Assembly (NCBI GenBank): GCA_964572145.1
Contig: CAZNES010000011.1
Coordinates: 8,687 to 72,686 of the forward strand
Length of the DNA stretch: 64,000 nucleotides
Direction of reading: 5' to 3'
Origin: an uncultured Syntrophobacteraceae bacterium
Lineage (GTDB): Bacteria > Desulfobacterota > Binatia > UBA9968
The notes below the pieces were generated by a model. That model was not told the DNA's origin and made no database searches. It saw only the letters and a list, made by a program, of their open reading frames with translations. The stretch's first letter is position 1; each line of letters begins with the position of its first letter. The translations under genes were made by a program, and so were the position numbers. This document shows positions 8,015-48,320 of the stretch, piece by piece.

Positions 8015-9646
8015 TCAACGGCGAATTTCCAGCGGCAGGATTTTCCCTCGCGGGCTGACGTAGGGGATCTCGCGCTTGATTCGGAGCGTGCCGGCGTCTT
8101 GCCAGATCCGGCTCATGAAACGATTGCTCCACGGGCCGGCCGACAAACCCTCTTGCAGCCGAGCCAGCAGCTTGGCTTCGTCGACGCTTCCCACTTGCGG
8201 GTGAACCACCAGCGTCAAGCGAGTCTGTCCGTTCCTGTCCTCCTCCTCGACGAGCTGGTAATCGCCGGGGCCGCCGCCGAACTCGGAAGGAAAGACTCTT
8301 TCCACGAGATCGAAGAGATCGACGTAGAAATAGTTCATGCCCTCACTAGTAAACTTCTCGAAGCTCCGGATGTGGTGCAGATGCAGCGTGAGCCCGGCGT
8401 CTTCCAACTCACAGCCGCAATTTCTCTTTTCCAGCGTCGCGTAATCTCCATTCTCGACGTTGAGGAGCATCCGCGGAGCTTCGGCATAAAGGCTCGTGCA
8501 GAGAAGAGGATGGATCGGCGGGCCGGCGGCGGCTAAAGACATGGGCCGAGGAATGATCGCAAGCGCGTGCTGATTGACGTGGACTTCGTCCCGGTGGCGC
8601 GGCCGGGCGCAGCCGAATCCGGCCGTGACGCCGCCGCCGTAGCTATACCGTGAAGTGAAGCTCGCGCCTGCCCGTCGGATCGCCTCTTCCTTCGCTTCGG
8701 TGAAAGGCTCGCCGGCGACGTTGAACTTGGTCCCTTCGAGCGAGACTCCCATTTCCGACGCGGTGCGCGCGATGCGCGCCGCGCTGCTCGCAATAGTGAT
8801 GATGTAGCAATTTCTCTTTCCGCGCTTCTCTTCTTCTATCCAGCGAACAATCGACCCCATGTCCTCGACGTCGATAAAGCGCGGCATGGGAAAACCGGGA
8901 CCGTGCCGTTTGCCGGTGAGCACGACCAGACAGGTCGTGAGATAGTGCGCCATCGCATGGAGCCGGCTCAGCTCCGGACTCCGGCGCGCGAACCAGCGAT
9001 CGGTCGCTTTGCCGAGCCTGGCGTTGACCAGGAGATGGTGCACCGCGCTGCCGGGAAGAATCGCGTCGTAGATCGCGTGAGCATAGGAGAAAAGATCGTG
9101 CGCGGCGAAGAACACGCCGGTTCCGATCGTCCGTATGGCGAGCCAGTCCAAAGGGATGACCGAGCGCACGGGCCGGTTGCGCGTCCCGCTGCTCTGGATG
9201 GTGAATCCGACCGGCAGGTCCGCGCGCGCGAAATCCGCCGGCGTGACGCGGAAACATTCCCGGCCGCGAACGATTTCTTTCTTGCCCTTGAATTCGTCCG
9301 AGGTGAGATAAACCCCGTCCGCCGCGAGCTGCTCCAGAGTTTGCTCGATTCCCCGGCGGCGGACCTGAGTTTGAAGATCGGAAAAATCGCAGCCGGAGTT
9401 TTTGAGAAGCTTCAGGTAAGGGCTGGCCGGACGCTCGTAAATTTGCGTCCGCACCAAATCGAGAAATCTTTCGGACCTCGTCTCCAGAGCCCTTCCGACT
9501 TCCTGCTTGGCGCGGTGAACGGTAATGCGCTCGCGGAGAAACTCACCGACGGCGGCTGAGAGCGCAATTTTCCCTTTGACGTCGAAGTTCCTGAGACCGT
9601 TTTGCAATTCCCGATAGCGCCGGCTCAGCGCTTCCAGTCGAGTCAT
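8015..9646 (-). CDS. ANL-superfamily adenylate-forming enzyme (GH3 / F390-synthetase / PaaK-like)
   Basis: 543 aa. QSSGTRNRPVRSVIP resembles the GH3/PaaK phosphate-binding motif (SSGT..G.PK.IP). The length is typical of bacterial GH3-like proteins. Confidence 0.45.
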   Translation of the reverse strand: MTRLEALSRRYRELQNGLRNFDVKGKIALSAAVGEFLRERITVHRAKQEVGRALETRSERFLDLVRTQIYERPASPYLKLLKNSGCDFSDLQTQVRRRGIEQTLEQLAADGVYLTSDEFKGKKEIVRGRECFRVTPADFARADLPVGFTIQSSGTRNRPVRSVIPLDWLAIRTIGTGVFFAAHDLFSYAHAIYDAILPGSAVHHLLVNARLGKATDRWFARRSPELSRLHAMAHYLTTCLVVLTGKRHGPGFPMPRFIDVEDMGSIVRWIEEEKRGKRNCYIITIASSAARIARTASEMGVSLEGTKFNVAGEPFTEAKEEAIRRAGASFTSRYSYGGGVTAGFGCARPRHRDEVHVNQHALAIIPRPMSLAAAGPPIHPLLCTSLYAEAPRMLLNVENGDYATLEKRNCGCELEDAGLTLHLHHIRSFEKFTSEGMNYFYVDLFDLVERVFPSEFGGGPGDYQLVEEEDRNGQTRLTLVVHPQVGSVDEAKLLARLQEGLSAGPWSNRFMSRIWQDAGTLRIKREIPYVSPRGKILPLEIRR

Positions 9647-38027: not shown

Positions 38028-38588
38028 GTGGAGAGCGTCAATCTTCCTTCGTCATCCCAAAGTCGTCTCATCGGATTGTCTCGCCGAACGCTCGAGAGCT
38101 TTGTCCGCAATGAGACCCAACGCGCCGAGTCCATCGACGATCCTTGTCTTTTGAATTCCGACTACGGCGCCTTCGTCAGCTTGCACCGGCAGGAGGAATT
38201 GCGCGGCTGCATCGGCACCTGCTTTCCGACCGCTCCGCTCTACGAGACGGTGATCGAGATGACCCAGGCGGCGGCCTCGCGCGACTGCCGCGTCGCCGCC
38301 ATCGCTTCGACCGAGCTGTCCGAGATCCGAATCGATATTTCCGTCTTGAGTCCCCTGCGGCCCGCTTCCGATCCGCTCCGTTTGGAAATCGGCAAGCACG
38401 GCCTCTACGTCGCAAGCGGCGGCAAGTGCGGCGTGCTCTTGCCTCAAGTCGCCGTTCAATACGGCTGGGACATGGAAATTTTCCTCGCGCAGACCTGCGT
38501 CAAGGCCGGCCTGCGCAAGAGCGCCTGGAAGCAGCCGGAAACGAAAGTCTCCAGCTTTATCGCGTTGATCATGGAGGAGGAACGATGA
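38028..38588 (+). CDS. AMMECR1-domain protein (AmmeMemoRadiSam system protein A-like)
   Basis: 186 aa. The GAFVSLH...LRGCIG AMMECR1 signature. Confidence 0.75.
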   Translation: MESVNLPSSSQSRLIGLSRRTLESFVRNETQRAESIDDPCLLNSDYGAFVSLHRQEELRGCIGTCFPTAPLYETVIEMTQAAASRDCRVAAIASTELSEIRIDISVLSPLRPASDPLRLEIGKHGLYVASGGKCGVLLPQVAVQYGWDMEIFLAQTCVKAGLRKSAWKQPETKVSSFIALIMEEER

Positions 38589-39397
38589 AACGGCGCTACT
38601 TCATTTCCCTGCTCGCCGGTTGGGCGCTGCTGGCGACGCGCCGCGTGCACGCGTTCTGCAACCCGGCGCTCGTGCGGCTGTTCGGCGGCGGCCCTGATCG
38701 GGTACAAATCCGCCCCGGCCCGACACCCAAGCTGGGCAATTATTTCGTTCAATGGTTCGGCCATTCGAGTTTTCTCATCCAATCGGGAAGCCAGACCAAA
38801 GTCGTCACCGATCCGAACCTCGACGTGACGCCGGGCATTCGCGCCGACGCGGTGACCGTGAGCAACGATCACATCACGCACAACAACGTCGGCGCGGTGT
38901 CGGGCGAGCCGGTGATTCTCCGCGGCATCACGCTGCGCCAGACCTGGAACCCGATTCGCACGAGCGTCAAAGACATTGCGATCGTCAACCTCCCGAGCCA
39001 AAGAGGGCCGGCCTGGGGCGCGGTGGCGAACTCGATCTTTGTCTACGAGATGGGCAGCCTCTGTCTCGCCCACCTGGGAAATCTCGGGCATCTGCTCACC
39101 CCCGAGCAAGAAAAGACGCTGCATCGCGTCGATGTCCTGATGGCGCCGATCGACGCGATGACCAATCTCGGCTTCGAGGACGTGCTCAGGGTGATCGAGC
39201 AGGTGCGGCCGCCGATCGTGATTCCGATGCACTACGACGTGGCGGGCCAAGCCGAGCGCTTCGCCGACTTTGTCGGCGACCGCTATCCCGTTCGCCGCCT
39301 GAAGGATTCCCAACTCATTTTAAGCCGCCCGGCGCTTCCCGCCTCCACGGAAATATTCATCCTGACTCATCCGCGCTCGTTTTTTCCCTGGAAATAG
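38585..39397 (+). CDS. MBL-fold metallo-hydrolase with a signal peptide
   Basis: Starts at the ATG overlapping the AMMECR1 stop. Signal peptide MKRRYFISLLAGWALLA. The His/Asp-rich MBL motifs (WFGHSSFLI, HYD) are present. Confidence 0.6.
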   Translation: MKRRYFISLLAGWALLATRRVHAFCNPALVRLFGGGPDRVQIRPGPTPKLGNYFVQWFGHSSFLIQSGSQTKVVTDPNLDVTPGIRADAVTVSNDHITHNNVGAVSGEPVILRGITLRQTWNPIRTSVKDIAIVNLPSQRGPAWGAVANSIFVYEMGSLCLAHLGNLGHLLTPEQEKTLHRVDVLMAPIDAMTNLGFEDVLRVIEQVRPPIVIPMHYDVAGQAERFADFVGDRYPVRRLKDSQLILSRPALPASTEIFILTHPRSFFPWK

Positions 39398-39627
39398 GGG
39401 CAGGCCTGCGTGCCTGCCCTGGGTGGGGAGGTGTTCTTGTAGGGGCGATCCTGCGTGATCGCCCTGGGGGGAGGGGAGGGCGGACACATAGGCCTGAGCC
39501 TGGTCGAAGGGTCCGCCCCTACAAAATTCCACGGACACCGGATAATTTGGGCAACGTCCGTTATTTTACTTCAAAGGTTATTAATGTTATAAAATTCGGA
39601 TTGAATTGTATTCGGACGAGGTTTGCT

Positions 39628-40002: not shown

Positions 40003-40872
40003 ATGAAAGTCAAAAAGGCCGTCATACCGGTCGCCGGCTTGGGCACGCGCCTTCTGCCCGCGACCAAAACCGTCCCGAAAGAGCTTCTGCCGATCGTGGA
40101 CACCCCCGCGATCCAGTACGTCGTCCAGGAGGCGGTGGATTCCGGACTCACCGAGATGATCTTTGTCACCGCCAGAGGAAAAGACGGCATCGAGGATCAT
40201 TTCGACGAAGCGCCGGAGCTCGAGCTGGTCCTGGTGCAGCGGGGACAAAGAGAGATACTGGAACGGCTCAAGGCGATCTCCGGGATGATCGATATCGTCT
40301 CGGTCCGGCAGAAGCAGCCTTTGGGACTCGGCCATGCGGTTCTTTCCGCCAAGCATCTGGTCGGGGACGAGCCCTTTGCCGTTCTGCTCTCGGACGATCT
40401 GATCGACGATCCGATTCCGTGCGTGCGGCAGTTACTCAACGTTTTCGAAGCGAAGGGAGAATCGGTCCTGGCGCTCAGAAAGGTGCCCCGGCCCGATGTA
40501 CGGCGCTACGGCATCATTCAAGGGCCGATGATAAGCGACCGGACCTACGAGGTTCAGTCGATGATCGAAAAGCCCGAGCCGAAAGATGCGCCGTCGGAGC
40601 TGGCCATCGTCGGCCGCTACATTCTTCACCAGGATATCTTTTCCTATTTGGAGAAGGTTAAGCCGGGCAAAGGCGGCGAAATACAGCTCACCGACGGAAT
40701 CGCCGAGCTCGCGCGCCGGAGAAAAGTCTACGGTTATGAATTTACCGGCGAGCACTATGACGTCGGCGACAAGCTGGGCGTCGTGCGCGCCAACGTCGCC
40801 TACGCGCTCAAAAGACCGGACCTCAGGGATCCGCTTATGAAATATCTCGCGAAGGTGGTGGGCAAGGACTAA
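40003..40872 (+). CDS. galU: UTP--glucose-1-phosphate uridylyltransferase
   Basis: 289 aa. VIPVAGLGTRLLPATKTVPKELLPIVD is the GalU N-terminal signature. Confidence 0.9.
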   Translation: MKVKKAVIPVAGLGTRLLPATKTVPKELLPIVDTPAIQYVVQEAVDSGLTEMIFVTARGKDGIEDHFDEAPELELVLVQRGQREILERLKAISGMIDIVSVRQKQPLGLGHAVLSAKHLVGDEPFAVLLSDDLIDDPIPCVRQLLNVFEAKGESVLALRKVPRPDVRRYGIIQGPMISDRTYEVQSMIEKPEPKDAPSELAIVGRYILHQDIFSYLEKVKPGKGGEIQLTDGIAELARRRKVYGYEFTGEHYDVGDKLGVVRANVAYALKRPDLRDPLMKYLAKVVGKD

Positions 40873-40928
40873 CCGTCGCACAGTTGCGACGGGGAAACTC
40901 AGCACTCAGGACTCAGCACTATTTTTGT

Positions 40929-41004
40929 GGGGCCGTAGCTCAGCTGGGAGAGCGTCGCGTTCGCAACGCGAAGGTCAGGGGTTCGACTCCCCTCGGCTCC
41001 ACCA
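40929..41004 (+). tRNA. tRNA-Ala (CGC)
   Basis: GGGGCCGTAGCTCAGCTGGGAGAGCGTCGCGTTCGCAACGCGAAGGTCAGGGGTTCGACTCCCCTCGGCTCCACCA. The G3:U70 identity pair is present, the anticodon is CGC and CCA is encoded. Confidence 0.9.
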
Positions 41005-41200
41005 TTCGACTCGCGGGCATAACGCCCGCTCGCTCATGGCAGGCCATTCAGGACTAACCCACTCATCGAGGCGAATGGTGCCCTGAGCAACGTCGAAGGG
41101 CTATCGGGTTCTTCGACTCGCCTGAAAGAACTCAGGCTCGCTCATGGCAGGCCATTCTCGGATTCATCTCGGTTTCGAGTCGAAGGGCCGTCTAGCAATG
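41005..41200 (+). repeat. tandem direct repeat (two units of ~107 bp) abutting the tRNA-Ala 3' end
   Basis: TTCGACTCGC...GCTCGCTCATGGCAGGCCATTC occurs at 41005-41047 and 41112-41158. GTCGAAGGGC also recurs. Confidence 0.6.
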
Positions 41201-41246
41201 CGATTTCTTTTGCGCTAATTTGCTGGAGTCGCAGGAGGGCACTCTA

Positions 41247-41909
41247 ATGGATCGGCGCAAATTCCATTTTGAACCGTTTGAAGCTCTAATTGTCTGCTGC
41301 GGCATTGTGTCGCTCTTGTTGGCCGTCTCCGGCTGCTCGAGCGTCCAGGGACAAATAGAAGCCGGCCGGAGGGATTTGCTTTACGGCGATCCAAACCTCG
41401 CGACGGCATATTTCGAGCGAGCGGCGGAGACGGCCCCCGATCGGCTTTATTTCAGCGTGCTCCCGGAAGGATCGTTGACCTACTTAGGACGCGGGTACTA
41501 CGCCACGGGAAAACTTCCCGAGGCGCGCCAGGCATTGGAGCGCGCCGTCTCCCGCTACGAGCAGGACAATCTTGCCAAGCTCTACCTGGGCCTGGTGCGC
41601 GTGCGCCAGGGAGACCGGGAGCGCGGACTGCGGGAGGTCGAAAGCGGCCTGCGCGGCATTCACGACTGGATCGAATACGTCGCACAGCGTTTCGCGTTTT
41701 CCTACGGCCGCTTCTGGGACCCCGGCAGACCGATCCGTAAACAGATCGAAGCGGACCTCGCCATGATCTCCTCGGGAAAAGTCGATGGGTCCAAACTCAT
41801 CGCCGACGCCGAGTGGGTGGGGAGACAGATAGAAGAGGAGATCGACCGCGCGCGCCGGGACGAAACCGACGATAGGTTCAGGGACGGCGACAACGGGGGC
41901 CGCCGGTAG
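41247..41909 (+). CDS. hypothetical lipoprotein (TPR-like)
   Basis: MDRRKF..LLLAVSGCSS lipobox. No family recognised. Confidence 0.45.
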   Translation: MDRRKFHFEPFEALIVCCGIVSLLLAVSGCSSVQGQIEAGRRDLLYGDPNLATAYFERAAETAPDRLYFSVLPEGSLTYLGRGYYATGKLPEARQALERAVSRYEQDNLAKLYLGLVRVRQGDRERGLREVESGLRGIHDWIEYVAQRFAFSYGRFWDPGRPIRKQIEADLAMISSGKVDGSKLIADAEWVGRQIEEEIDRARRDETDDRFRDGDNGGRR

Positions 41910-42335
41910 AAAAGTGATATCTCCGCGCTTGCCGCAGGCGCGAATCGAAACGGCCGGCCTTGCCTTTCCCTCCTTCCGCTACAACCATCTTTCTGCACGA
42001 TCGCCGTTTGTCACCTGACAACCTGGCCCTTTAATCATTGAGAGATCCCATCTCGACAACGGATCTCTCTCTGCCCTTTTATCTGCTTTCACCAATCTTG
42101 TTCGCAGTGACTGGTCCACGATTGTTCTTGTTCTGGCAAAGCGAAAGGTTTTTGGATATGTTGCTCGCCGGGCCACAATCAACCTGGAGGCAACTTTGGA
42201 GGGTTCAACTCAACGTGGAGGCATCATGACAAATTGGCTTTGGCTGGGTTCAGCTGTTCTCCTCTGTGTACAGCGGGCCGTCCTCCATCTCGCCAACGTT
42301 TCTATCTCCCCTTGGTAGGTGACACTGATTGGCCA

Positions 42336-42411
42336 CTAACCGTAGCTCAGTTGGGAGTGCGCTAGAATCACGCTCTAGAGGTCGGGGGTTCGACTCCTCT
42401 CGGCTCCACCA
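42336..42411 (+). other. tRNA-like chimera / pseudo-tRNA (Val-CAC-type anticodon arm, tRNA-Ala-type 3' end, non-pairing acceptor 5' strand)
   Basis: The D arm GTAGCTCAGTTGGGAG, the anticodon arm CTAGA-ATCACGC-TCTAG (CAC) and the T arm plus 3' end GGGGGTTCGACTCCTCTCGGCTCCACCA differ by only one nucleotide from the tRNA-Ala 3' end at 40973-41004. The 5' seven nucleotides CTAACCG cannot pair with CGGCTCC. Confidence 0.45.
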
Positions 42412-42621
42412 GTTCAGGGGGATGATGGAACACCAGCCCCTTATTTTTTGGCAAAGGAGCCATTTTTTGGCTCATTCTTCTTCCCCGAGGTCACGCCCGC
42501 CTCCGGGGCTGACCTCGTCCGATCACCAATCGGCCTAAGCTCTAGGCGCTCTTCTTTTACCATTGAACAGATCCATCGGATAGTGTAACTACTCTGACCA
42601 GTTTACTCATCGGAGGATCCT

Positions 42622-45327
42622 ATGGCGACGCTGAACTGGCATTCTATGGGTGTCGATACCGTCTTGACGGAACTACACACAGATCCTCAACGAGGTTTAG
42701 CAGAGGATGAGGTGAGAAGGCGCATTGAGGAATATGGCTATAATGAGCTTAAAAAAGAAGAGAAGGTCTCTCCCTGGATCCTGTTCTTCAAACAGTTCAA
42801 GAACATCCTCATCGTCATCCTGCTGATTGCAACGGTCCTATCGGCCCTCCTCGGGGAGATGGTGGATGCCACCATCATCATGGCCATCGTCATCTTCTGC
42901 GCGGTCCTGGGCTTCGTCCAGGAGTACCGGGCGGAGCAGGCCCTGGAGGCCCTGAAGAAAATGCTCACGCCTACCATCACAGCGATCAGGGGAGGGAAGG
43001 AACACGAGATCCCCTCGAAGGAGTTAGTTCCAGGAGACATCATGCTCCTTGAGGCGGGAGATAAAATCCCCGCTGATGGCCGGTCCGTCGAAGTCCACTC
43101 CCTGAAATGCGATGAGGCTCCCCTGACAGGAGAATCCTTTCCGGTGGAGAAGGAGACCAAGCTACTGCCTGAGCATATAGCCGTGGGAGACAGAAAAAAC
43201 ATGGTCTTCACAGGCACCACCGTCACCTACGGGAGAGCAAAGGTAGTGGTCACAACCACGGGCATGAATACAGAGTTTGGCAAGATCGCCGAAGAGGTGG
43301 CGTCAGTCGCCAAAGAAGAGACGCCCCTTGAAAAGAGGACAGCAGAGATCGGTAAATGGCTAGGGATCATCTGCCTGGCCGTATGCTTTTTGGCTGCGGG
43401 CATCAGCATTATCAAGGAGCTGATGGTGGGAAAGCTTGATCTCCAGTTCACGATCACAATGGTGACGTTCGGTATCGCTCTTGCGGTGGCGGCGGTTCCT
43501 GAGGCGCTGGCCGCCATCGTGACCGGCGCGCTGGCGATCGGCATGCATGAAATGGCCAAGAGAAACGCGCTGGTGAGAAAGATGCCGGCGGTGGAGACGC
43601 TGGGATGCACGACGGTGATCTGCTCGGATAAAACAGGGACCCTTACGAAAGGGGAGATGACGGTGCGGAAGTTCTTTAGCGGGGAAAGGATGATTGAGGT
43701 GACCGGCGCTGGTTACACCCCCGAAGGTGGTTTTAGCGCAGCGATCAATGATCCATCCGCCCAGTGGCTTCTGAAGGCGGGGCTCCTGTGCAGCGATGCC
43801 GTGCTTGAAGAAAAAGAGGACCGCTGGTCCGTCAAAGGAGATCCTACTGAGGGCGCACTCGTGGTGCTCGCCGTCAAGTCAGGGTTGCATCAGGAGGAGA
43901 CCCGGCTTGAGTGCCCGAGGATCGAGGAGTTTCCGTTCAGCTCTGAGAGAAAGCGGATGACGACGATCCATACGATGGGAGATGGGAAGAGAGTGGCGTT
44001 TGTGAAAGGGGCTCCAGAAGTGCTCCTGGAGAGATGCTCCTCTCTCCTGGATGGAGGAGAACTGAGAGCGTTAACCAATGGCGAAGGGGAAAGAATTCTG
44101 AACGTCAATGAGGAGATGGCCAAGGACGCCTTAAGGGTTCTGGGCATCGCCTATAAAGAACTCCCAGAGATGGATGGGTATGGCGAGGAGTCCGTTGAAA
44201 GAGACCTGGTCTTCCTCGGCCTGGTCGGAATGATGGATCCTCCCAGGGAGGAGGCCACAGAGGCAGTAAAGGTGTGTCGCCAGGTGCATATCAAACCCGT
44301 CATGATCACAGGGGATCACAGGCTGACTGCCGTGGCCATCGCAAAAGAGATTGGTATCTACCGTGATGGAGATCTCGTTCTCACGGGCGAGGAACTTGAC
44401 AAGATGAGCGAGGAGGAGTTCGAACGGATTGTTGAAAGAGTGACCGTCTATGCCAGGGTCTCGCCCATGGACAAGCTGAAGATCATCAAGGCATGGAAGA
44501 AAAAGGGCGAGGTAGTCGCCATGACCGGCGACGGAGTCAACGACGCCCCGGCCCTCAAGCACGCCGACATTGGGATCGCCATGGGGATCACAGGAACCGA
44601 GGTGGCCAAGGAGGCTGCGGATGTAGTCCTGATGGACGATAACTTTGCCACTATTATCCAGGCTATTGAGCGGGGAAGGTGGATCTATGACAACATTAAA
44701 AAGTACCTCACCTATCTACTGAGAGCGAACATCACGGAGGTGGTGGTCCTCGGCGGAGTCGTCATGATCACGGACCCCGAGTTCTTGCCTCTCCTGCCGG
44801 CGGCGATCCTCTACATCAATTTGGCCACGGACGGGCCTCCGGCGCTGGCGCTGGGTGTGGCGCCTCCCGACCCTGACATTATGCAGAGACCCCCGCGAGA
44901 CCCGAAAGAGAGCGTGTTTTCATGGGACGTCAGAGCCCTCGTCCTGCTGGGGGTGGTCATCGAGTGCCCCATCTTCTTGTGGGTCTTCTTCCAGAACTTT
45001 GCCAATCTAGAGCTGGCAAGAACGAAGGTCTTCTTCATGTACGTGCTCATCGAGTTGATCCTCGCCCTCAATTTCCGCTCGTTGAAGTACAGCATCTTCC
45101 AGGCGCCCCCCCACAAATCGCTCGTTCTGTCGATTGTCGGCACCTTGGTATTCACCGCTGCCTTGATCCAGATTTCCTCCGTGCGCGAGGCATTTGGAAT
45201 CGCCCTGCCAGCTGCCTCGGACCTTGGTATAATTTTGGCTCTGGGCCTATTCGTCACGATCACGATCGAAATTACCAAAGCTGTTTTGAGGGCCAAGGCA
45301 CCTGGGGTGGGAGGGGTCTCCGCCTAA
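42622..45327 (+). CDS. cation-transporting P-type ATPase (type IIA-like, Ca2+/Mg2+)
   Basis: 901 aa. DKTGTLT phosphorylation motif, TGDGVNDAPAL hinge motif, and a 10-TM architecture. Its codon usage has lower GC3 than the neighbouring genes. Confidence 0.9.
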   Translation: MATLNWHSMGVDTVLTELHTDPQRGLAEDEVRRRIEEYGYNELKKEEKVSPWILFFKQFKNILIVILLIATVLSALLGEMVDATIIMAIVIFCAVLGFVQEYRAEQALEALKKMLTPTITAIRGGKEHEIPSKELVPGDIMLLEAGDKIPADGRSVEVHSLKCDEAPLTGESFPVEKETKLLPEHIAVGDRKNMVFTGTTVTYGRAKVVVTTTGMNTEFGKIAEEVASVAKEETPLEKRTAEIGKWLGIICLAVCFLAAGISIIKELMVGKLDLQFTITMVTFGIALAVAAVPEALAAIVTGALAIGMHEMAKRNALVRKMPAVETLGCTTVICSDKTGTLTKGEMTVRKFFSGERMIEVTGAGYTPEGGFSAAINDPSAQWLLKAGLLCSDAVLEEKEDRWSVKGDPTEGALVVLAVKSGLHQEETRLECPRIEEFPFSSERKRMTTIHTMGDGKRVAFVKGAPEVLLERCSSLLDGGELRALTNGEGERILNVNEEMAKDALRVLGIAYKELPEMDGYGEESVERDLVFLGLVGMMDPPREEATEAVKVCRQVHIKPVMITGDHRLTAVAIAKEIGIYRDGDLVLTGEELDKMSEEEFERIVERVTVYARVSPMDKLKIIKAWKKKGEVVAMTGDGVNDAPALKHADIGIAMGITGTEVAKEAADVVLMDDNFATIIQAIERGRWIYDNIKKYLTYLLRANITEVVVLGGVVMITDPEFLPLLPAAILYINLATDGPPALALGVAPPDPDIMQRPPRDPKESVFSWDVRALVLLGVVIECPIFLWVFFQNFANLELARTKVFFMYVLIELILALNFRSLKYSIFQAPPHKSLVLSIVGTLVFTAALIQISSVREAFGIALPAASDLGIILALGLFVTITIEITKAVLRAKAPGVGGVSA

Positions 45328-45348
45328 AGAGTCGGACCGAGACTGGCG

Positions 45349-46542
45349 TTGATAAGTGTGAGATCAGAAGTCAAGCCCCTTCTTTGGCTGCTCGCATCGG
45401 TTTCCCTGGCCTTACAGTGGATTATCTTTCATCTTTCCGGCGTACCTATTTCACCAGAGTGGCAGGCTCTAAGCGCCGGCCTCGCGATTTTTGGAGCGGC
45501 GTTTCTTCTCTCTTGGTCCGCCGAGCTTGCGCAACTCGATATTCCTCAGGCTTTGGCCCTCGCTTTCCTTGCTCTCATCGCCGTTTTGCCGGAGTACGCG
45601 GTAGACATGTACTTCACCTGGATGGCGGGGAAGAACCCGCAATACACGGCGTACGCGACCGCAAACATGACCGGCGCCAATCGTCTGCTCATAGGGGTGG
45701 GCTGGGCCGCCGTCATCTTCACCTATTGGCTCAAGACCCGTCACCGCTCTTTTGCCCTTGAGCCCTCTCACAAGATCGAAATTCTATATCTTACTCTCGC
45801 GACCGTTTACTCGTTTCTGATCCCGCTTAAGGGCCAGCTCGATCTCCTCGACGCCGTCGTCCTGATCAGCCTTTTTGGATTCTACATCTGGACGGCAACC
45901 CAGGCGGCTCACGTAGAGCCGGACCTCGAAGGGCCGACGGAAATGATCGCCGCGTGGGGAACGCCCTCACGGCGCGCGACAACCCTGGCGTTGTTCCTGA
46001 TTTCCGGTTACACCATCTTTATTTCGGCTGAGCCGTTTGCCGAGGGTCTCCTGGCCACCGGCCGGACTTTCGGCATCGAAGAGTTTGTGCTGGTTCAGTG
46101 GCTGGCACCGTTGGCCTCCGAGTCGCCCGAATTCATCGTAGCGATTCTCTTCGCCCTGCGCGCCAACCCGGGGGCGAGTCTCGGCACGCTGCTCTCTTCC
46201 AAGGTCAATCAGTGGACGCTGCTGGTGGGAATGCTCCCGGTCGTCTATATGGTCTCGGCCGGCCGGCTGACGCCGATGCATATGGACGCGCGGCAAGTGG
46301 AAGAGATGCTGCTAACTTCGGCGCAGTCCGTATTCGCGGTTGCGGTGCTGATCAATCTATCCTTCTCTCTGATGGAGGCGGGCGTCTTGTTTGTGCTCTT
46401 TACCACCCAGCTTTTGATTCCCGACCCGACGTTTCGCTACTTCTTCTCGTTCCTCTATATTGCCTTGACGATCGGAATTTTCATCTTCAACAAGGAAAGT
46501 CGCAGCGCTTTGGTCGGGCTTTTCTCGCGGTCTAAAACATGA
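45349..46542 (+). CDS. polytopic membrane protein, putative cation (Ca2+) exchanger (CaCA-like)
   Basis: 397 aa with about 10 TM segments and an internal two-fold repeat. It lies directly downstream of the P-type ATPase. The family call is tentative. Confidence 0.4.
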   Translation: MISVRSEVKPLLWLLASVSLALQWIIFHLSGVPISPEWQALSAGLAIFGAAFLLSWSAELAQLDIPQALALAFLALIAVLPEYAVDMYFTWMAGKNPQYTAYATANMTGANRLLIGVGWAAVIFTYWLKTRHRSFALEPSHKIEILYLTLATVYSFLIPLKGQLDLLDAVVLISLFGFYIWTATQAAHVEPDLEGPTEMIAAWGTPSRRATTLALFLISGYTIFISAEPFAEGLLATGRTFGIEEFVLVQWLAPLASESPEFIVAILFALRANPGASLGTLLSSKVNQWTLLVGMLPVVYMVSAGRLTPMHMDARQVEEMLLTSAQSVFAVAVLINLSFSLMEAGVLFVLFTTQLLIPDPTFRYFFSFLYIALTIGIFIFNKESRSALVGLFSRSKT

Positions 46543-46563
46543 TCACGCCCGGCCGCGGCGCAG

Positions 46564-46782
46564 TCAAACCCGGCGAAACGGGAGGGTTCCGTTTTTAGAT
46601 ATCAGACGCCAAGTGTCGTCCGCATCATAGCTGACACGGACGACTTCGCCCGGTTCCAGATGAAATGATCGGTACTGGTTGAGAGGCGTTCCGGTGACGC
46701 GGCAAATTACCGACAGGATGGGAAAATTATGGCTGACGACGAGGAGCGTTTCGTCCGGACCATGGCGCCCACCGCGCCCCAA
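46564..46782 (-). pseudogene. diverged duplicate of the 3' end of the histidine-phosphatase gene (fragment)
   Basis: ETLLVVSHNFPILSVICRVTGTPLNQYRSFHLEPGEVVRVSYDADDTWRLISKNGTLPFRRV parallels the C-terminus of the 47706-48320 product. The DNA is roughly 78% identical. Confidence 0.8.
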
Positions 46783-46974
46783 AAAATCCCGATGCGCTGC
46801 TGCCGGCGCGGCAGCGTGCGCACCGCCATCGCGATGACCAGCGCGTTATCACCGGCCAACGTCAAATCGATGACAACAATCTTAAGCCAGCTCAGAATGA
46901 ATTCCCAATGCATTGAAAAGCTGTTCCTTCAGCAGACCCCGTTTGAAATGAAGAAATTCGGACGGGTGTTTTAG

Positions 46975-47705: not shown

Positions 47706-48320
47706 TCATTCCCGGCGCAGCGGGAGCTTGCCGTTCTCACGCATCACTCGCCATTCATCATCCCCGTTGTAGCTCAAGCGAACAACTCCGCCCGGCGCTA
47801 GATGATAGGTTCGGTACTGGTTAAGCGGAGTCCCGGTGATGTGGCAGATAACCGCCAGGATAGGAAAGTTGTGACTGACGACAACGAGGGTCTCTTCCGC
47901 ACGATGGCGTCGGACGATCCGGCGCATGCCGTCCCATGCCCGCTGCTCGACGTCGATCAATCTCTCGCCGCCGGGAATATCGGCGTCCGCGGGCGTCTCT
48001 CGCCACCGGCGAAGAAAATCGGGACGGGTCGCCTGAATCTCCGCAAAGGTGAGGCCCTCGATCTCGCCGTGATCGAGCTCGCGCAGGCTTTCTTCGATGG
48101 TGACGGCGAGGTTATGGAAGCGGCCGACGGCGCCGGCGGTCTGGAGCGCCCGTTTGAGCTGGCTCGAATAAATCGCGTCGATTTTCTCGCGGCTCAAGTC
48201 CAGCGCCGCGGCCTCCGCCTGCCTCAGCCCGACTTCGTTGAGCTCCAGGTCGGTCGATCCCTGGCATCTCTGCGCCAGATTCCAGTCGGTGGCCCCGTGC
48301 CGCAGCAAAAAAATCCGCAT
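47706..48320 (-). CDS. histidine-phosphatase (phosphoglycerate-mutase-like / CobC-like) family protein
   Basis: MRIFLLRHGATDWN is the RHG catalytic motif. 204 aa. Confidence 0.8.
   Translation of the reverse strand: MRIFLLRHGATDWNLAQRCQGSTDLELNEVGLRQAEAAALDLSREKIDAIYSSQLKRALQTAGAVGRFHNLAVTIEESLRELDHGEIEGLTFAEIQATRPDFLRRWRETPADADIPGGERLIDVEQRAWDGMRRIVRRHRAEETLVVVSHNFPILAVICHITGTPLNQYRTYHLAPGGVVRLSYNGDDEWRVMRENGKLPLRRE

Follow-up and report, generated by a model that had tools for sequence, protein, structure and literature searches.

Probable import of a calcium-pump block, and an apparently undescribed structured element, at the 3′ end of a tRNA-Ala gene

We analysed the surroundings of the tRNA-Ala(CGC) gene in a 64-kb stretch of DNA from an uncultured bacterium (contig CAZNES010000011.1; the whole stretch is called the window hereafter). 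Two tandem units directly abut the CCA end of this gene, and a second, tRNA-like sequence (the pseudo-tRNA) lies further downstream, next to a gene for a P-type ATPase. We consider it probable that two unrelated things lie side by side here: a block of DNA imported from another Binatia lineage, which includes the pseudo-tRNA, and copies of a portable element that occupies the CCA end of the resident tRNA. The original prediction had taken the tRNA 3′ end shared by the two tRNA copies for the attL/attR signature of a decayed tyrosine-integrase island, or of the edge of one. Comparison with related loci points instead to a syntenic block from a lineage resembling that of locus L082. The pseudo-tRNA and the ATPase are a matter of ordinary genome plasticity at a tRNA hot spot, and the family of units is the more interesting result.

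The window was compared with related or unit-bearing loci, designated here by L numbers, of which the relatives are all contigs of metagenome-assembled genomes (MAGs). GalU followed by tRNA-Ala(CGC) is a conserved order in at least 40 Binatia-type loci, and the window itself appears to derive from a Candidatus Binatia-type genome. Its closest relatives are L001 and L002, whose flanks are 94-95% identical to it in nucleotide (nt) sequence and whose GalU proteins share 98% amino acid (aa) identity with its own. The ancestral order, in which tRNA-Ala is followed by the gene for a Na+/Ca2+ exchanger, is seen in L011, L022, L024, L025, L027, L028, L031, L034, L040 and L041. The 3′ flank of tRNA-Ala(CGC) is a hot spot of recombination and integration in this lineage.

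One line of evidence for import comes from the ATPase region. The ATPases of the window and L082 share 94.4% aa and 91.2% nt identity, against 66.7% aa and 69% nt for the GalU proteins and genes of the same pair, and the identity of 91.2% spans 42432-45398 of the window (blastn). L082 (94% aa) and L083 (84% aa), which were found independently through their ATPases, both have the gene order DksA, GalU, type-2 tRNA-Ala, terminator and ATPase. The pseudo-tRNA, terminator, leader and ATPase of the window are collinear with L082, L083 has the same order, and in L083 an exchanger gene starts 7 nt past the ATPase. An ATPase homologue is absent from all 80 GalU-anchored loci; the homologues retrieved by the protein search are 94%, 91%, 88%, 87% and 84% identical, and an exact-sequence look-up found no identical protein on record. 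In L002, the lipoprotein gene leads directly into an intact TerC gene, without the DNA at 41910-46756 of the window, and in L001 it is followed by the exchanger, without pseudo-tRNA or ATPase. Since the ATPase region is 91% identical to L082 in nt sequence while galU is 69% identical, and since the closest relatives lack the block, we interpret it as a recent import from an L082-like Binatia lineage into the lineage of the window.

The ATPase gene is intact and encodes a predicted Ca2+-transporting type II P-type pump, with the motifs TGES (residue 169), DKTGT (336) and GDGxND (636) and with E1-E2 and N- and C-terminal cation-ATPase domains; JGI names its homologues Ca2+-transporting ATPase. 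The exchanger gene starts 22 nt past the ATPase stop codon, and the sequence suggests an ATPase-exchanger operon with translational coupling. At L081:6201-10706, the exchanger precedes an ATPase (87% aa) and no tRNA is nearby; from this order it follows that the ATPase-exchanger pair itself has been rearranged and is mobile among lineages.

tRNA-Ala(CGC) genes carry either a type-1 arm, as in the window and L001-L010, or a type-2 arm (CTAGA-ATCGCAC-TCTAG), as in L011-L042 and others. The arm of the pseudo-tRNA, CTAGA-ATCACGC-TCTAG, is type 2 with two loop substitutions. Over positions 5-76, the pseudo-tRNA differs from type-2 tRNA-Ala at 6-7 positions and from the resident gene at 18, and it is 90% identical to the tRNA-Ala of L082 over 72 nt. 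Relative to a plausible donor, its first 4 nt are lost or replaced, the D stem has an A>T change, the loop has CGCA>CACG (two changes) and the T stem has C>T. The pseudo-tRNA therefore appears as a decayed tRNA-Ala gene of a different Binatia lineage. The donor gene arrived without its first four nt, so an acceptor stem was never possible, and we regard the pseudo-tRNA as a probable relic without function.

An in-situ tandem duplication of the resident gene, with decay of the second copy, would explain why the two copies lie 1.4 kb apart on the same strand and are nearly identical in the last 33 nt and in the D-arm region (20/22 nt). This origin is highly improbable: type-2 orthologues differ from the pseudo-tRNA at 6-7 positions and the resident gene at 18, drift cannot yield an entirely different anticodon stem that is perfectly paired, and the sequence that follows runs collinear with the L082 lineage at 91% nt identity.

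Structural prediction agrees with decay. The resident tRNA-Ala(CGC) gene was confirmed by ARAGORN and Rfam, folds as a perfect cloverleaf and is identical in sequence in L001 and L002. The pseudo-tRNA had been described as a cloverleaf with well-formed D and anticodon arms; it is tRNA-like according to both programs, but its minimum free energy fold has no acceptor stem and no cloverleaf and is no better than shuffles (z = +0.8); for the resident gene and for the L082 orthologue alike, a cloverleaf is obtained. Its anticodon arm is intact but different, its D stem contains a U-U mismatch and its T arm has one G-U pair. The predicted failure of the 5′ acceptor strand to pair was borne out: only 4/7 pairs can form, positions 1, 2 and 4 are unpaired, and the 5′ acceptor strand is lost. 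The Rfam match is local (42340-42403, model positions 5-66) and scores 34.4 bits against a gathering score of 29; the three real tRNAs of the window score 66.9-72.7 bits, about twice as much.

A bona fide tRNA-Val with a valid acceptor stem had been named as the outcome that would overturn the original prediction. ARAGORN does label 42337-42407 (71 nt) as 'tRNA-Val(cac)', and no valid acceptor stem accompanies the label. That a functional tRNA-Val(CAC) is encoded here is barely credible, even though the anticodon and T arms are intact and the Rfam score exceeds the gathering score: the acceptor has 4/7 pairs, with G1-C72 and the first three of the four 5′ positions lost, the D stem is mismatched, the Rfam match is local at about half the score of a real tRNA, the fold has z = +0.8, and the body is that of tRNA-Ala, including the 3′ strand of the G3:U70 pair.

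The repeat that prompted the integrase reading is real. The two copies of the tRNA 3′ end, at 40972-41004 and 42379-42411, are 31/33 identical, with two mismatches instead of the one first reported; none would be expected by chance, and the 64-kb window contains no third copy. Orthologous tRNA-Ala genes share that end anyway, which explains the repeat by full-length homology.

We weighed a decayed tyrosine-integrase island in which the resident tRNA-Ala is attL, the 3′ part of the pseudo-tRNA is attR, and the integrase and most of the cargo were deleted later. In its favour are a repeat far beyond chance and the use of tRNA-Ala(CGC) as a real attB in relatives, with exact repeats of 24-47 nt in L021 and L029 and integrases in L015, L021, L023 and L029. 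The genuine att repeats in L021 and L029 are exact copies of the last 46-47 nt of the tRNA, lying 3.0 and 7.2 kb downstream, respectively, and just before the exchanger. PF00589 integrases are located beside the tRNA in L015, L021 and L023 and at the far end inside the L029 island. The window differs from these islands in several respects. The repeats of L021, L029 and L216 begin in the anticodon loop and are thus confined to the 3′ part of the tRNA, whereas in the window pair all but 4 nt of the tRNA are homologous, with an anticodon arm that belongs to the tRNA-Ala of a different clade. Between the two tRNA copies lie the units and the lipoprotein gene, which are also present in L001-L003, where there is no second copy; the DNA specific to the window (42.2-46.76 kb), with the foreign ATPase, is distal to the pseudo-tRNA and outside the bracket formed by the copies. 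In L021 a CCA-abutting unit has been displaced together with the attR fragment; the units of the window have stayed next to the intact tRNA. Collinearity with L082 extends from the pseudo-tRNA through the terminator and leader to the ATPase. As originally stated, no integrase is present in the window (tblastn with the L021 integrase, E<1; Pfam matches on its open reading frames (ORFs) were to TPR, ATPase and exchanger families only), and no integrase remnant was seen either.

The claim that the ATPase is atypical in codon usage did not hold. Across 29 window genes, GC content at third codon positions (GC3) averages 0.727 (sd 0.051); the ATPase has a value of 0.705 (z = -0.43) and shows a codon-usage distance of z = 0.06. 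Neither overall GC nor GC3 nor codon usage sets the ATPase or the exchanger apart, and the sole low-GC stretch is the non-coding region at 41.9-42.6 kb. The att reading is not supported, as the homology spans the whole tRNA, the bracket excludes the foreign DNA, the unit is undisplaced, there is no integrase and the composition is ordinary. We thus regard an integrase island as unlikely, and the 33-nt repeat as something other than an attL/attR duplication. Comparison of the syntenic locus in relatives, which the original prediction had proposed, bore out the foreignness of the ATPase to the window's clade and the second tRNA-like sequence as a relic; the pattern it revealed speaks against an att scar.

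For the true islands, the coordinates are L021:4315-7418 and L029:10876-18135. Within its 3 kb, the L021 island encodes a truncated PF00589 integrase together with a Gp49/HTH toxin-antitoxin pair, and L015 and L023 share the integrase-proximal arm. Williams is said to have carried out, in 2002, a sublocation analysis of tRNA/tmRNA integration sites (tmRNA, transfer-messenger RNA). Like tyrosine-integrase islands, the block in the window uses the same tRNA and the same side of the gene, with variable downstream cargo (the true cases being L015, L021, L023 and L029); unlike them, it has a near-full-length xenologous tRNA as its second copy, no integrase, stub junctions and foreign DNA that is unbracketed. 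The Islander approach to islands at tRNA and tmRNA sites is cited in PMC4131195.

The junctions of the imported block consist of gene fragments. On the left, the stub of an exchanger gene at 42190-42318 (MTNWLWLG...SISPW, then a stop) is 70% identical over 106 nt to the exchanger start of L001 and 92% over 26 nt to that of L032, with 55-67% identity by blastp to the exchanger N-termini of several loci. A direct repeat (83%) links 42048-42071 in the spacer with 42285-42308 inside the stub, 237 nt apart, and the copy at 42048-42071 may be an older, second exchanger remnant of an earlier replacement. Nineteen of 22 nt are identical between 40868-40889, in the galU stop region and downstream hairpin (ACTAACCGTCGCACAGTTGCGA), and 42335-42356 at the 5′ edge of the pseudo-tRNA (ACTAACCGTAGCTCAGTTGGGA), a match that may be microhomology used in the left junction.

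On the right, a 3′ stub of a second histidine-phosphatase (HisPhos) gene, which probably came in together with the exchanger, is 85% identical (aa) to the L001 gene, against 68% to the window's own gene at 47706-48320, about 1 kb further on. The junction falls at about 46757-46767, and homology to L002, whose intact TerC gene occupies 8269-8952 on the minus strand (Pfam TerC, 1.4e-44), resumes at 46757. The exchanger is itself a mosaic: identity to L082 collapses near 45400, and from about 45400-45415 onwards it is the L001 allele that comes closest (78% nt, 82% aa). Stand-alone exchangers have a conserved MTNWLW start, in place of which this one has a different N-terminus (..VRSEVKPLLWLLASV..) at 45349-45415. 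Stub-type junctions in a mosaic to which at least three lineages contributed argue for illegitimate and homologous recombination and against site-specific integration.

These observations could be accounted for as follows. A block of about 4.5-4.9 kb, starting within 41910-42335 and ending at about 46760, would be a copy of the syntenic locus of another Binatia lineage, in which the order was GalU, tRNA-Ala, terminator, ATPase and exchanger. In the window the block would comprise, in order, the pseudo-tRNA, the decayed terminator, the leader, the ATPase, the exchanger and the HisPhos 3′ fragment. We infer that it entered by recombination with illegitimate junctions and without a tyrosine integrase. 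On the left, the exchanger 5′ stub would have been fused to the donor tRNA at its position 5; on the right, the HisPhos 3′ stub would have been joined to TerC codon 52, truncating TerC, and a further crossover would have occurred near 45400 in the exchanger. The donor tRNA would since have drifted at its D stem, anticodon loop and T stem, leaving an intact ATPase-exchanger pair that is presumably expressed from its own leader.

The same junctions bear on whether the window is an assembly chimera of two co-occurring Binatia strains. The window is probably a metagenome assembly, no identical ATPase protein is on record, and tRNA ends and units break assemblies, many contigs with GIY-YIG nuclease genes (see below) being short. 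A chimera would be expected to join within a shared repeat and to leave an intact tRNA, whereas here the tRNA is 5′-truncated with four private substitutions, and the two junctions are made up of remnants of decayed genes (exchanger 5′, HisPhos 3′ and TerC 5′) that are absent from L082; we therefore find an artefact of this kind very unlikely.

The import we favour resembles xenologous block replacement between related lineages by homologous or homology-facilitated illegitimate recombination: the tRNA-Ala-to-exchanger block is 91% identical in nt sequence to the related lineage, the flanks are at 69%, and a crossover lies within the exchanger near 45400. It differs in that the block was added beside the resident tRNA and did not replace it, leaving a truncated duplicate, and in that at least three parental lineages contributed. 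Several points weigh against the import as described. The L082 contig ends about 120 nt past the ATPase, so the donor exchanger is not comparable. Both the HisPhos stub and the body of the exchanger resemble L001 more closely than L083; hence at least three lineages contributed. The relatives used for the comparison of the block are MAG contigs throughout. The pseudo-tRNA lies roughly where an attR would be expected and the islands of relatives use this tRNA, and a first step assisted by an integrase, followed by extensive deletions, is conceivable, although none of the observations calls for it.

The second component of the explanation is the pair of units. The original prediction of two tandem units after tRNA-Ala was correct (starts at 41005 and 41112/41113, a period of 108, and scores of 81 and 42 bits with our model R1), except that unit 1 starts right after the CCA and not inside the T loop, which holds only a similar 9-mer: the 5′ arm TTCGACTCG of the unit resembles the T-loop sequence TTCGACTCC. 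Both units contain an exact 21-mer, CTCGCTCATGGCAGGCCATTC, that is found nowhere else in the window. Tandem Repeats Finder misses the array, since the similarity between the units is limited to about 45-75 nt of each.

In unit A, TTCGACTCG is followed by a variable hairpin, CTCGCTCATGGCAGGCCA, a spacer, CGAGGCGAATGGTG, a hairpin GCCCTGAGC..GTCGAAGGGC and a 10-nt linker, and CGAGGCGAATGGTG pairs with CACCA+TTCGACTCG. A 14-nt inverted repeat (41000-41013 / 41067-41080, 93%) lies in this unit, whose fold has z = -3.8. Both units follow this plan, with CGAG(T/G)CGAA-TGGTG behind the spacer and then GCCCTGAGC...GTCGAAGGGC. Unit B lacks the stretch between two CGAGTCGAA repeats. There is one unit at tRNA-Ala in L001, one in L002, and one and a half in L003; hairpins are shuffled among the units of the window and L001-L003, which indicates unequal exchange between tandem copies.

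Empty sites show how a unit sits at its target. In L004 and L008, ACCA is followed by the native terminator, and the insert of L003 lies exactly between ACCA and the terminator. It ends in ...GGCAGGCCA and has no duplication of a tRNA fragment, and the target-site duplication amounts only to a 3-nt 'CCA' ambiguity. Native terminators lie after the units in L003, L021 and L082 (where one unit is carried between tRNA and terminator), and no T-run follows the unit helices. Model R1 finds two copies in the window; 1.04 Mb of related loci yield another five, and every copy lies at a tRNA-Ala end or beside another unit.

The units occur far beyond these loci. A metagenome scan with an 18-nt core gave at least 120 loci; the unit counts given from here on are among the matches listed. 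Flanking arms are present in 96 of 137 core matches, and 53 units directly adjoin, at distance 0, the 3′ end of a tRNA or tmRNA called by ARAGORN. Host tRNAs cover 11 specificities (Ala, Leu, Ser, Arg, Val, Glu, Asn, Met, Gln, Tyr and Pro), and about 12 different host tmRNAs are distinguished by their tags. Altogether, tRNA ends of more than 14 types are occupied by the family. Further units follow contig-truncated tmRNAs or att-type tRNA fragments (L021, L131 and L216). Viral contigs gave 11 core-motif matches, one of them with arms; as these matches nearly all lack arms, the element is not phage-borne.

A common architecture runs through this material. In the long helix, CACCA+UUCGACUCG+extension pairs with extension+CGAGUCGAA+UGGUG, and a hairpin GCCCY...RGGGC follows. 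In a MAFFT alignment of 31 units (A2), the helix of CCA+TTCGACTCG+extension with extension+CGAGTCGAA+TGG, plus the hairpin, has 87.8% of cells paired, a value that 0/500 shuffles reach and against which slid controls give at most 42%. Double changes were seen at one pair as U-A 18 / G-C 7 and at another as U-A 21 / C-G 10. In a second alignment (A3, 94 distinct sequences), which must be read with the reservation that it was fitted to the model, double-sided changes occur in 19/20 pairs, and on each of the five measures none of 500 shuffles attains the observed value. The 3′ arm of the unit tracks the end of the tRNA (CACCA/TGGTG in 17 cases, CCCCA/TGGGG in 1 and GCCA/TGGC in 1). The arms CCATTCGACTCG / CGAGTCGAATGG are covarying terminal inverted repeats. 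A variant at L218:1030-1100 has the TTCGACTCG/CGAGTCGAA arms swapped for an unrelated palindrome, AATTTTTGCG/GCAAAAATT; in it, pairing of CACCA with TGGTG persists, as does the CCCCGAGC..GTCGAGGGGC hairpin.

Rfam 15 gave no match to the units at E<=5 (window region) or E<=1 (eight unit-bearing loci), save for tRNA/tmRNA and sub-threshold noise, and we found no published description of the element in the literature searched, which included papers on the 'multicopy nucleotide sequences' of Geobacter/Pelobacter, subscription journals being outside its coverage. The units thus apparently constitute a widespread, undescribed structured element that always starts right behind the CCA (or discriminator-CCA-like) end of a tRNA or tmRNA gene. 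The view that they are ordinary tRNA 3′ trailers, terminator debris or att remnants, and no distinct family, draws on the resemblance of arm TTCGACTCG to the T-loop TTCGACTCC, on their position where att remnants accumulate, and on the copies that follow att-type tRNA fragments (L021, L131 and L216). It is improbable in view of a single architecture of about 100 nt, with covarying helices, after many tRNAs and tmRNAs of different organisms, the clean insertion in L003 compared with L004 and L008, the lack of a T-run and the native terminators after units.

Three other candidates were tried and rejected. A permuted tmRNA was discarded: sub-threshold Rfam matches of 18-23 bits, spanning the tRNA end and the unit, are driven by the T arm and CCA, and ARAGORN finds no tmRNA. 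A pseudoknot CTCGCTC/GAGCGAG was dropped for want of covariation, with 17/31 mismatches at one pair. Hepatitis delta virus-like and hammerhead ribozymes have, by eye, a strand order that does not fit, and there was no Rfam ribozyme match.

Some of the units are associated with a gene. An ORF of about 92 aa with a GIY-YIG domain (PF01541, 1e-13 to 1e-18) follows on the same strand, 60-280 nt past the unit, in 22 of 92 units; the window has no GIY-YIG gene. Reverse look-up of four GIY-YIG homologues, several of them from Binatia, showed all four to be linked to units: two in the order smpB-tmRNA-unit-GIY-YIG, one in tRNA-Ala(GGC)-unit-GIY-YIG and one with a variant unit (L218). A called tRNA or tmRNA plus a unit was present in L215, L216 and L217, and L218 has tmRNA-end fragments and the variant unit only, with no called tRNA or tmRNA gene. 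A further contig, known by its gene order alone, has smpB, a gap and GIY-YIG.

At L216:1800-2654, tRNA-Ala(GGC) is followed by a unit, the GIY-YIG gene, 167 nt, a 41-nt copy of the tRNA 3′ end, a unit and a partial unit. The cassette of unit and nuclease gene is 571 nt long, has no integrase, and is bracketed by the tRNA and the exact 41-nt 3′ repeat, which begins in the anticodon loop. Similar tRNA fragments follow the ORF in L147, L188 and L121. Contigs with ~92-aa GIY-YIG genes are mostly 0.5-3 kb long, which suggests that tRNA/tmRNA-unit-GIY-YIG loci are repetitive and a regular cause of breaks in metagenome assemblies.

From these results the unit could be a portable module of the tRNA 3′ flank that spreads horizontally and is co-transcribed with the tRNA, the 3′ maturation of which it would tolerate or direct. 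It would move alone by insertion after CCA, its own end regenerating ...CCA, and would also travel as the tRNA-proximal end of small integrative cassettes with a YhbQ/Slx1-type GIY-YIG gene. The two copies in the window, which lack the nuclease, may have arisen by tandem reinsertion or unequal crossing-over. More broadly, we tentatively propose a cross-phylum, undescribed family that sits on the CCA ends of tRNAs and tmRNAs, forms a helix with the tRNA 3′ end and has a YhbQ/Slx1-type GIY-YIG nuclease as its dedicated partner, and that would be either a new class of selfish element targeting tRNA ends or a portable 3′-processing or insulating module; we think this proposal worth stating while giving it less than even credence. 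In its processing or insulating version, it is possibly a new nuclease-guided or self-cleaving RNA, letting mobile DNA occupy tRNA ends with the tRNA spared.

Against such a family, 76% of the units have no nuclease gene nearby, no conserved right end was found after the GIY-YIG ORF, and the recurrence of smpB-tmRNA-unit-GIY-YIG in Binatia could reflect vertical retention and not mobility. On the structural side, G-T pairs outnumber A-C pairs by 34 to 19, so that the structure may act as RNA or as single-stranded or cruciform DNA, and sequence conservation in the helix arms exceeds what a purely structural RNA would call for, which fits protein recognition or recent spread.

The units share features with several known systems. 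Like miniature inverted-repeat transposable elements (MITEs), repetitive extragenic palindromes (REPs) and bacterial interspersed mosaic elements (BIMEs), they are non-coding, about 80-150 nt long and equipped with inverted-repeat arms (CCATTCGACTCG / CGAGTCGAATGG), and occur in tandem and nested copies; a P4-like hairpin is also found in a bona fide MITE of L001 with terminal inverted repeats. Unlike these elements, the units are placed strictly on the CCA end and always on the tRNA strand, all of them abutting tRNA or tmRNA ends, tRNA fragments or other units. Their arm includes the last 2-6 nt of the tRNA and covaries with it, there is no target-site duplication beyond 'CCA', and the gene associated with them codes for a GIY-YIG nuclease instead of a DDE or RAYT transposase.

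RNA elements that pair with the NCCA end of tRNA include the T-box antiterminator, through its UGGN bulge, and RNase P, through GGU in L15. By analogy only, the UGG(U/G)G tract of the unit is paired to (N)CCA, and covariation links it to the discriminator-proximal bases; unlike in the T-box and RNase P, pairing occurs in cis within the same precursor, in a 14-26-bp helix, with no specifier or riboswitch architecture and no Rfam match. Free-standing GIY-YIG homing genes likewise place a small GIY-YIG ORF beside tRNA genes, with a patchy distribution suggestive of selfish spread. The T4 Seg proteins are free-standing GIY-YIG homing endonucleases, of which SegB acts in a tRNA gene region (PMC13096335). 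The proteins associated with units differ in being ~92-aa YhbQ/Slx1-like domains without a DNA-binding extension, encoded chromosomally in diverse bacteria; a conserved structured element precedes their genes and some of the cassettes are bracketed in an att-like manner by tRNA 3′ repeats (L216).

The features of the locus are listed in Table 1.

Table 1. Features around the tRNA-Ala(CGC) gene, by position in the window.
Feature	Position	Strand	Evidence or remarks
galU (UTP-glucose-1-phosphate uridylyltransferase)	40003-40872	+	Pfam NTP_transferase 1.7e-29; conserved left anchor
Resident intact tRNA-Ala(CGC), type-1 anticodon arm TCGCG-TTCGCAA-CGCGA	40929-41004	+	ARAGORN; Rfam 68.6 bits, full model
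Unit A of CCA-abutting element	41005-41111	+	Model R1 81.2 bits, E 1.6e-14, match 40999-41101
Unit B	41112-41188	+	Model R1 41.8 bits, model positions 7-79; compensated hairpin differs (CCTGAAAGAACTCAGG)
TPR lipoprotein gene, lipobox LAVSGC	41247-41909	+	Pfam TPR_2 and related families; common to L001-L003 only
Spacer	41910-42189		Similarity to closest relatives ends here; no match in any related locus compared
Decayed 5′ fragment of Na+/Ca2+ exchanger gene and upstream region (MTNWLWLGSAVLLCVQRAVLHLANVSISPW, then stop)	42190-42318	+	blastn/blastp to exchanger starts
Pseudo-tRNA: putative xenologous, inactivated type-2 tRNA-Ala(CGC)	42336-42411	+	tRNA mismatch table; Rfam local match; no cloverleaf
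Decayed tRNA terminator (GGGGGA..CCCC TTATTTTTT) and ATPase leader	42412-42621	+	Collinear with L082 1806-1995; weak hairpin
P-type ATPase, predicted Ca2+ type, intact	42622-45327	+	Pfam PF00122, PF00689, PF00690, PF13246, PF00702; motifs
Na+/Ca2+ exchanger, mosaic	45349-46542	+	Pfam Na_Ca_ex; first ~50 nt L082-like
3′ fragment of second histidine-phosphatase gene	46564-46782	-	Residues 6-71 match HisPhos 138-203
5′ fragment (52 codons) of TerC-family gene, cut by insertion	46707-46913	-	94% to residues 1-52 of intact L002 gene

The lipoprotein segment is 92-93% identical in nt sequence to L001 and L002, the blastn match reaching 41892/41909. Other small repeats were seen near the locus. The heptamer ACTCAGC is repeated 3.4 times at 40897-40920, in the presumed promoter region just 5′ of tRNA-Ala, and its spacing and copy number vary in L001 and L002. 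About 170 nt at 39393-39564, between the ORF at 38144-39397 and dksA, are missing from L002 and L003; two hairpins of high GC content (GGGGCAGGCCTGCGTGCCTGCCC and GGGGCGATCCTGCGTGATCGCCCC) occur there, as does a P4-like motif, CCTGAGCCTGGTCGAAGGGT (39493-39512), and the stretch is probably another small repeat element. In L001 only, the gap between galU and tRNA-Ala holds a MITE of 168-170 nt (L001:10913-11082) with 16-nt terminal inverted repeats, GAGTGTGTGAAAAAAT...ATTTTTTCACACACTC; within it are two CCTGAG...TCGAAGGGC hairpins, of the type of the units' second hairpin.

The pseudo-tRNA is a cautionary case, in which a repeated tRNA 3′ end near foreign DNA need not be an att site; here the repeat would mark a whole syntenic block, with a Ca2+ pump and an antiporter, that moved between Binatia lineages. 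The element would explain why the same palindrome follows many tRNA and tmRNA genes in bacteria from soil and sediment, and why assemblies break there, and it would give the very common small GIY-YIG genes (COG2827-type) a first genomic context. It raises the question of how a tRNA matures when its CCA end is locked in a helix of 14-26 bp. Cleavage of the RNase III type, action of the GIY-YIG protein or self-cleavage could each reveal a new mechanism of processing or mobility.

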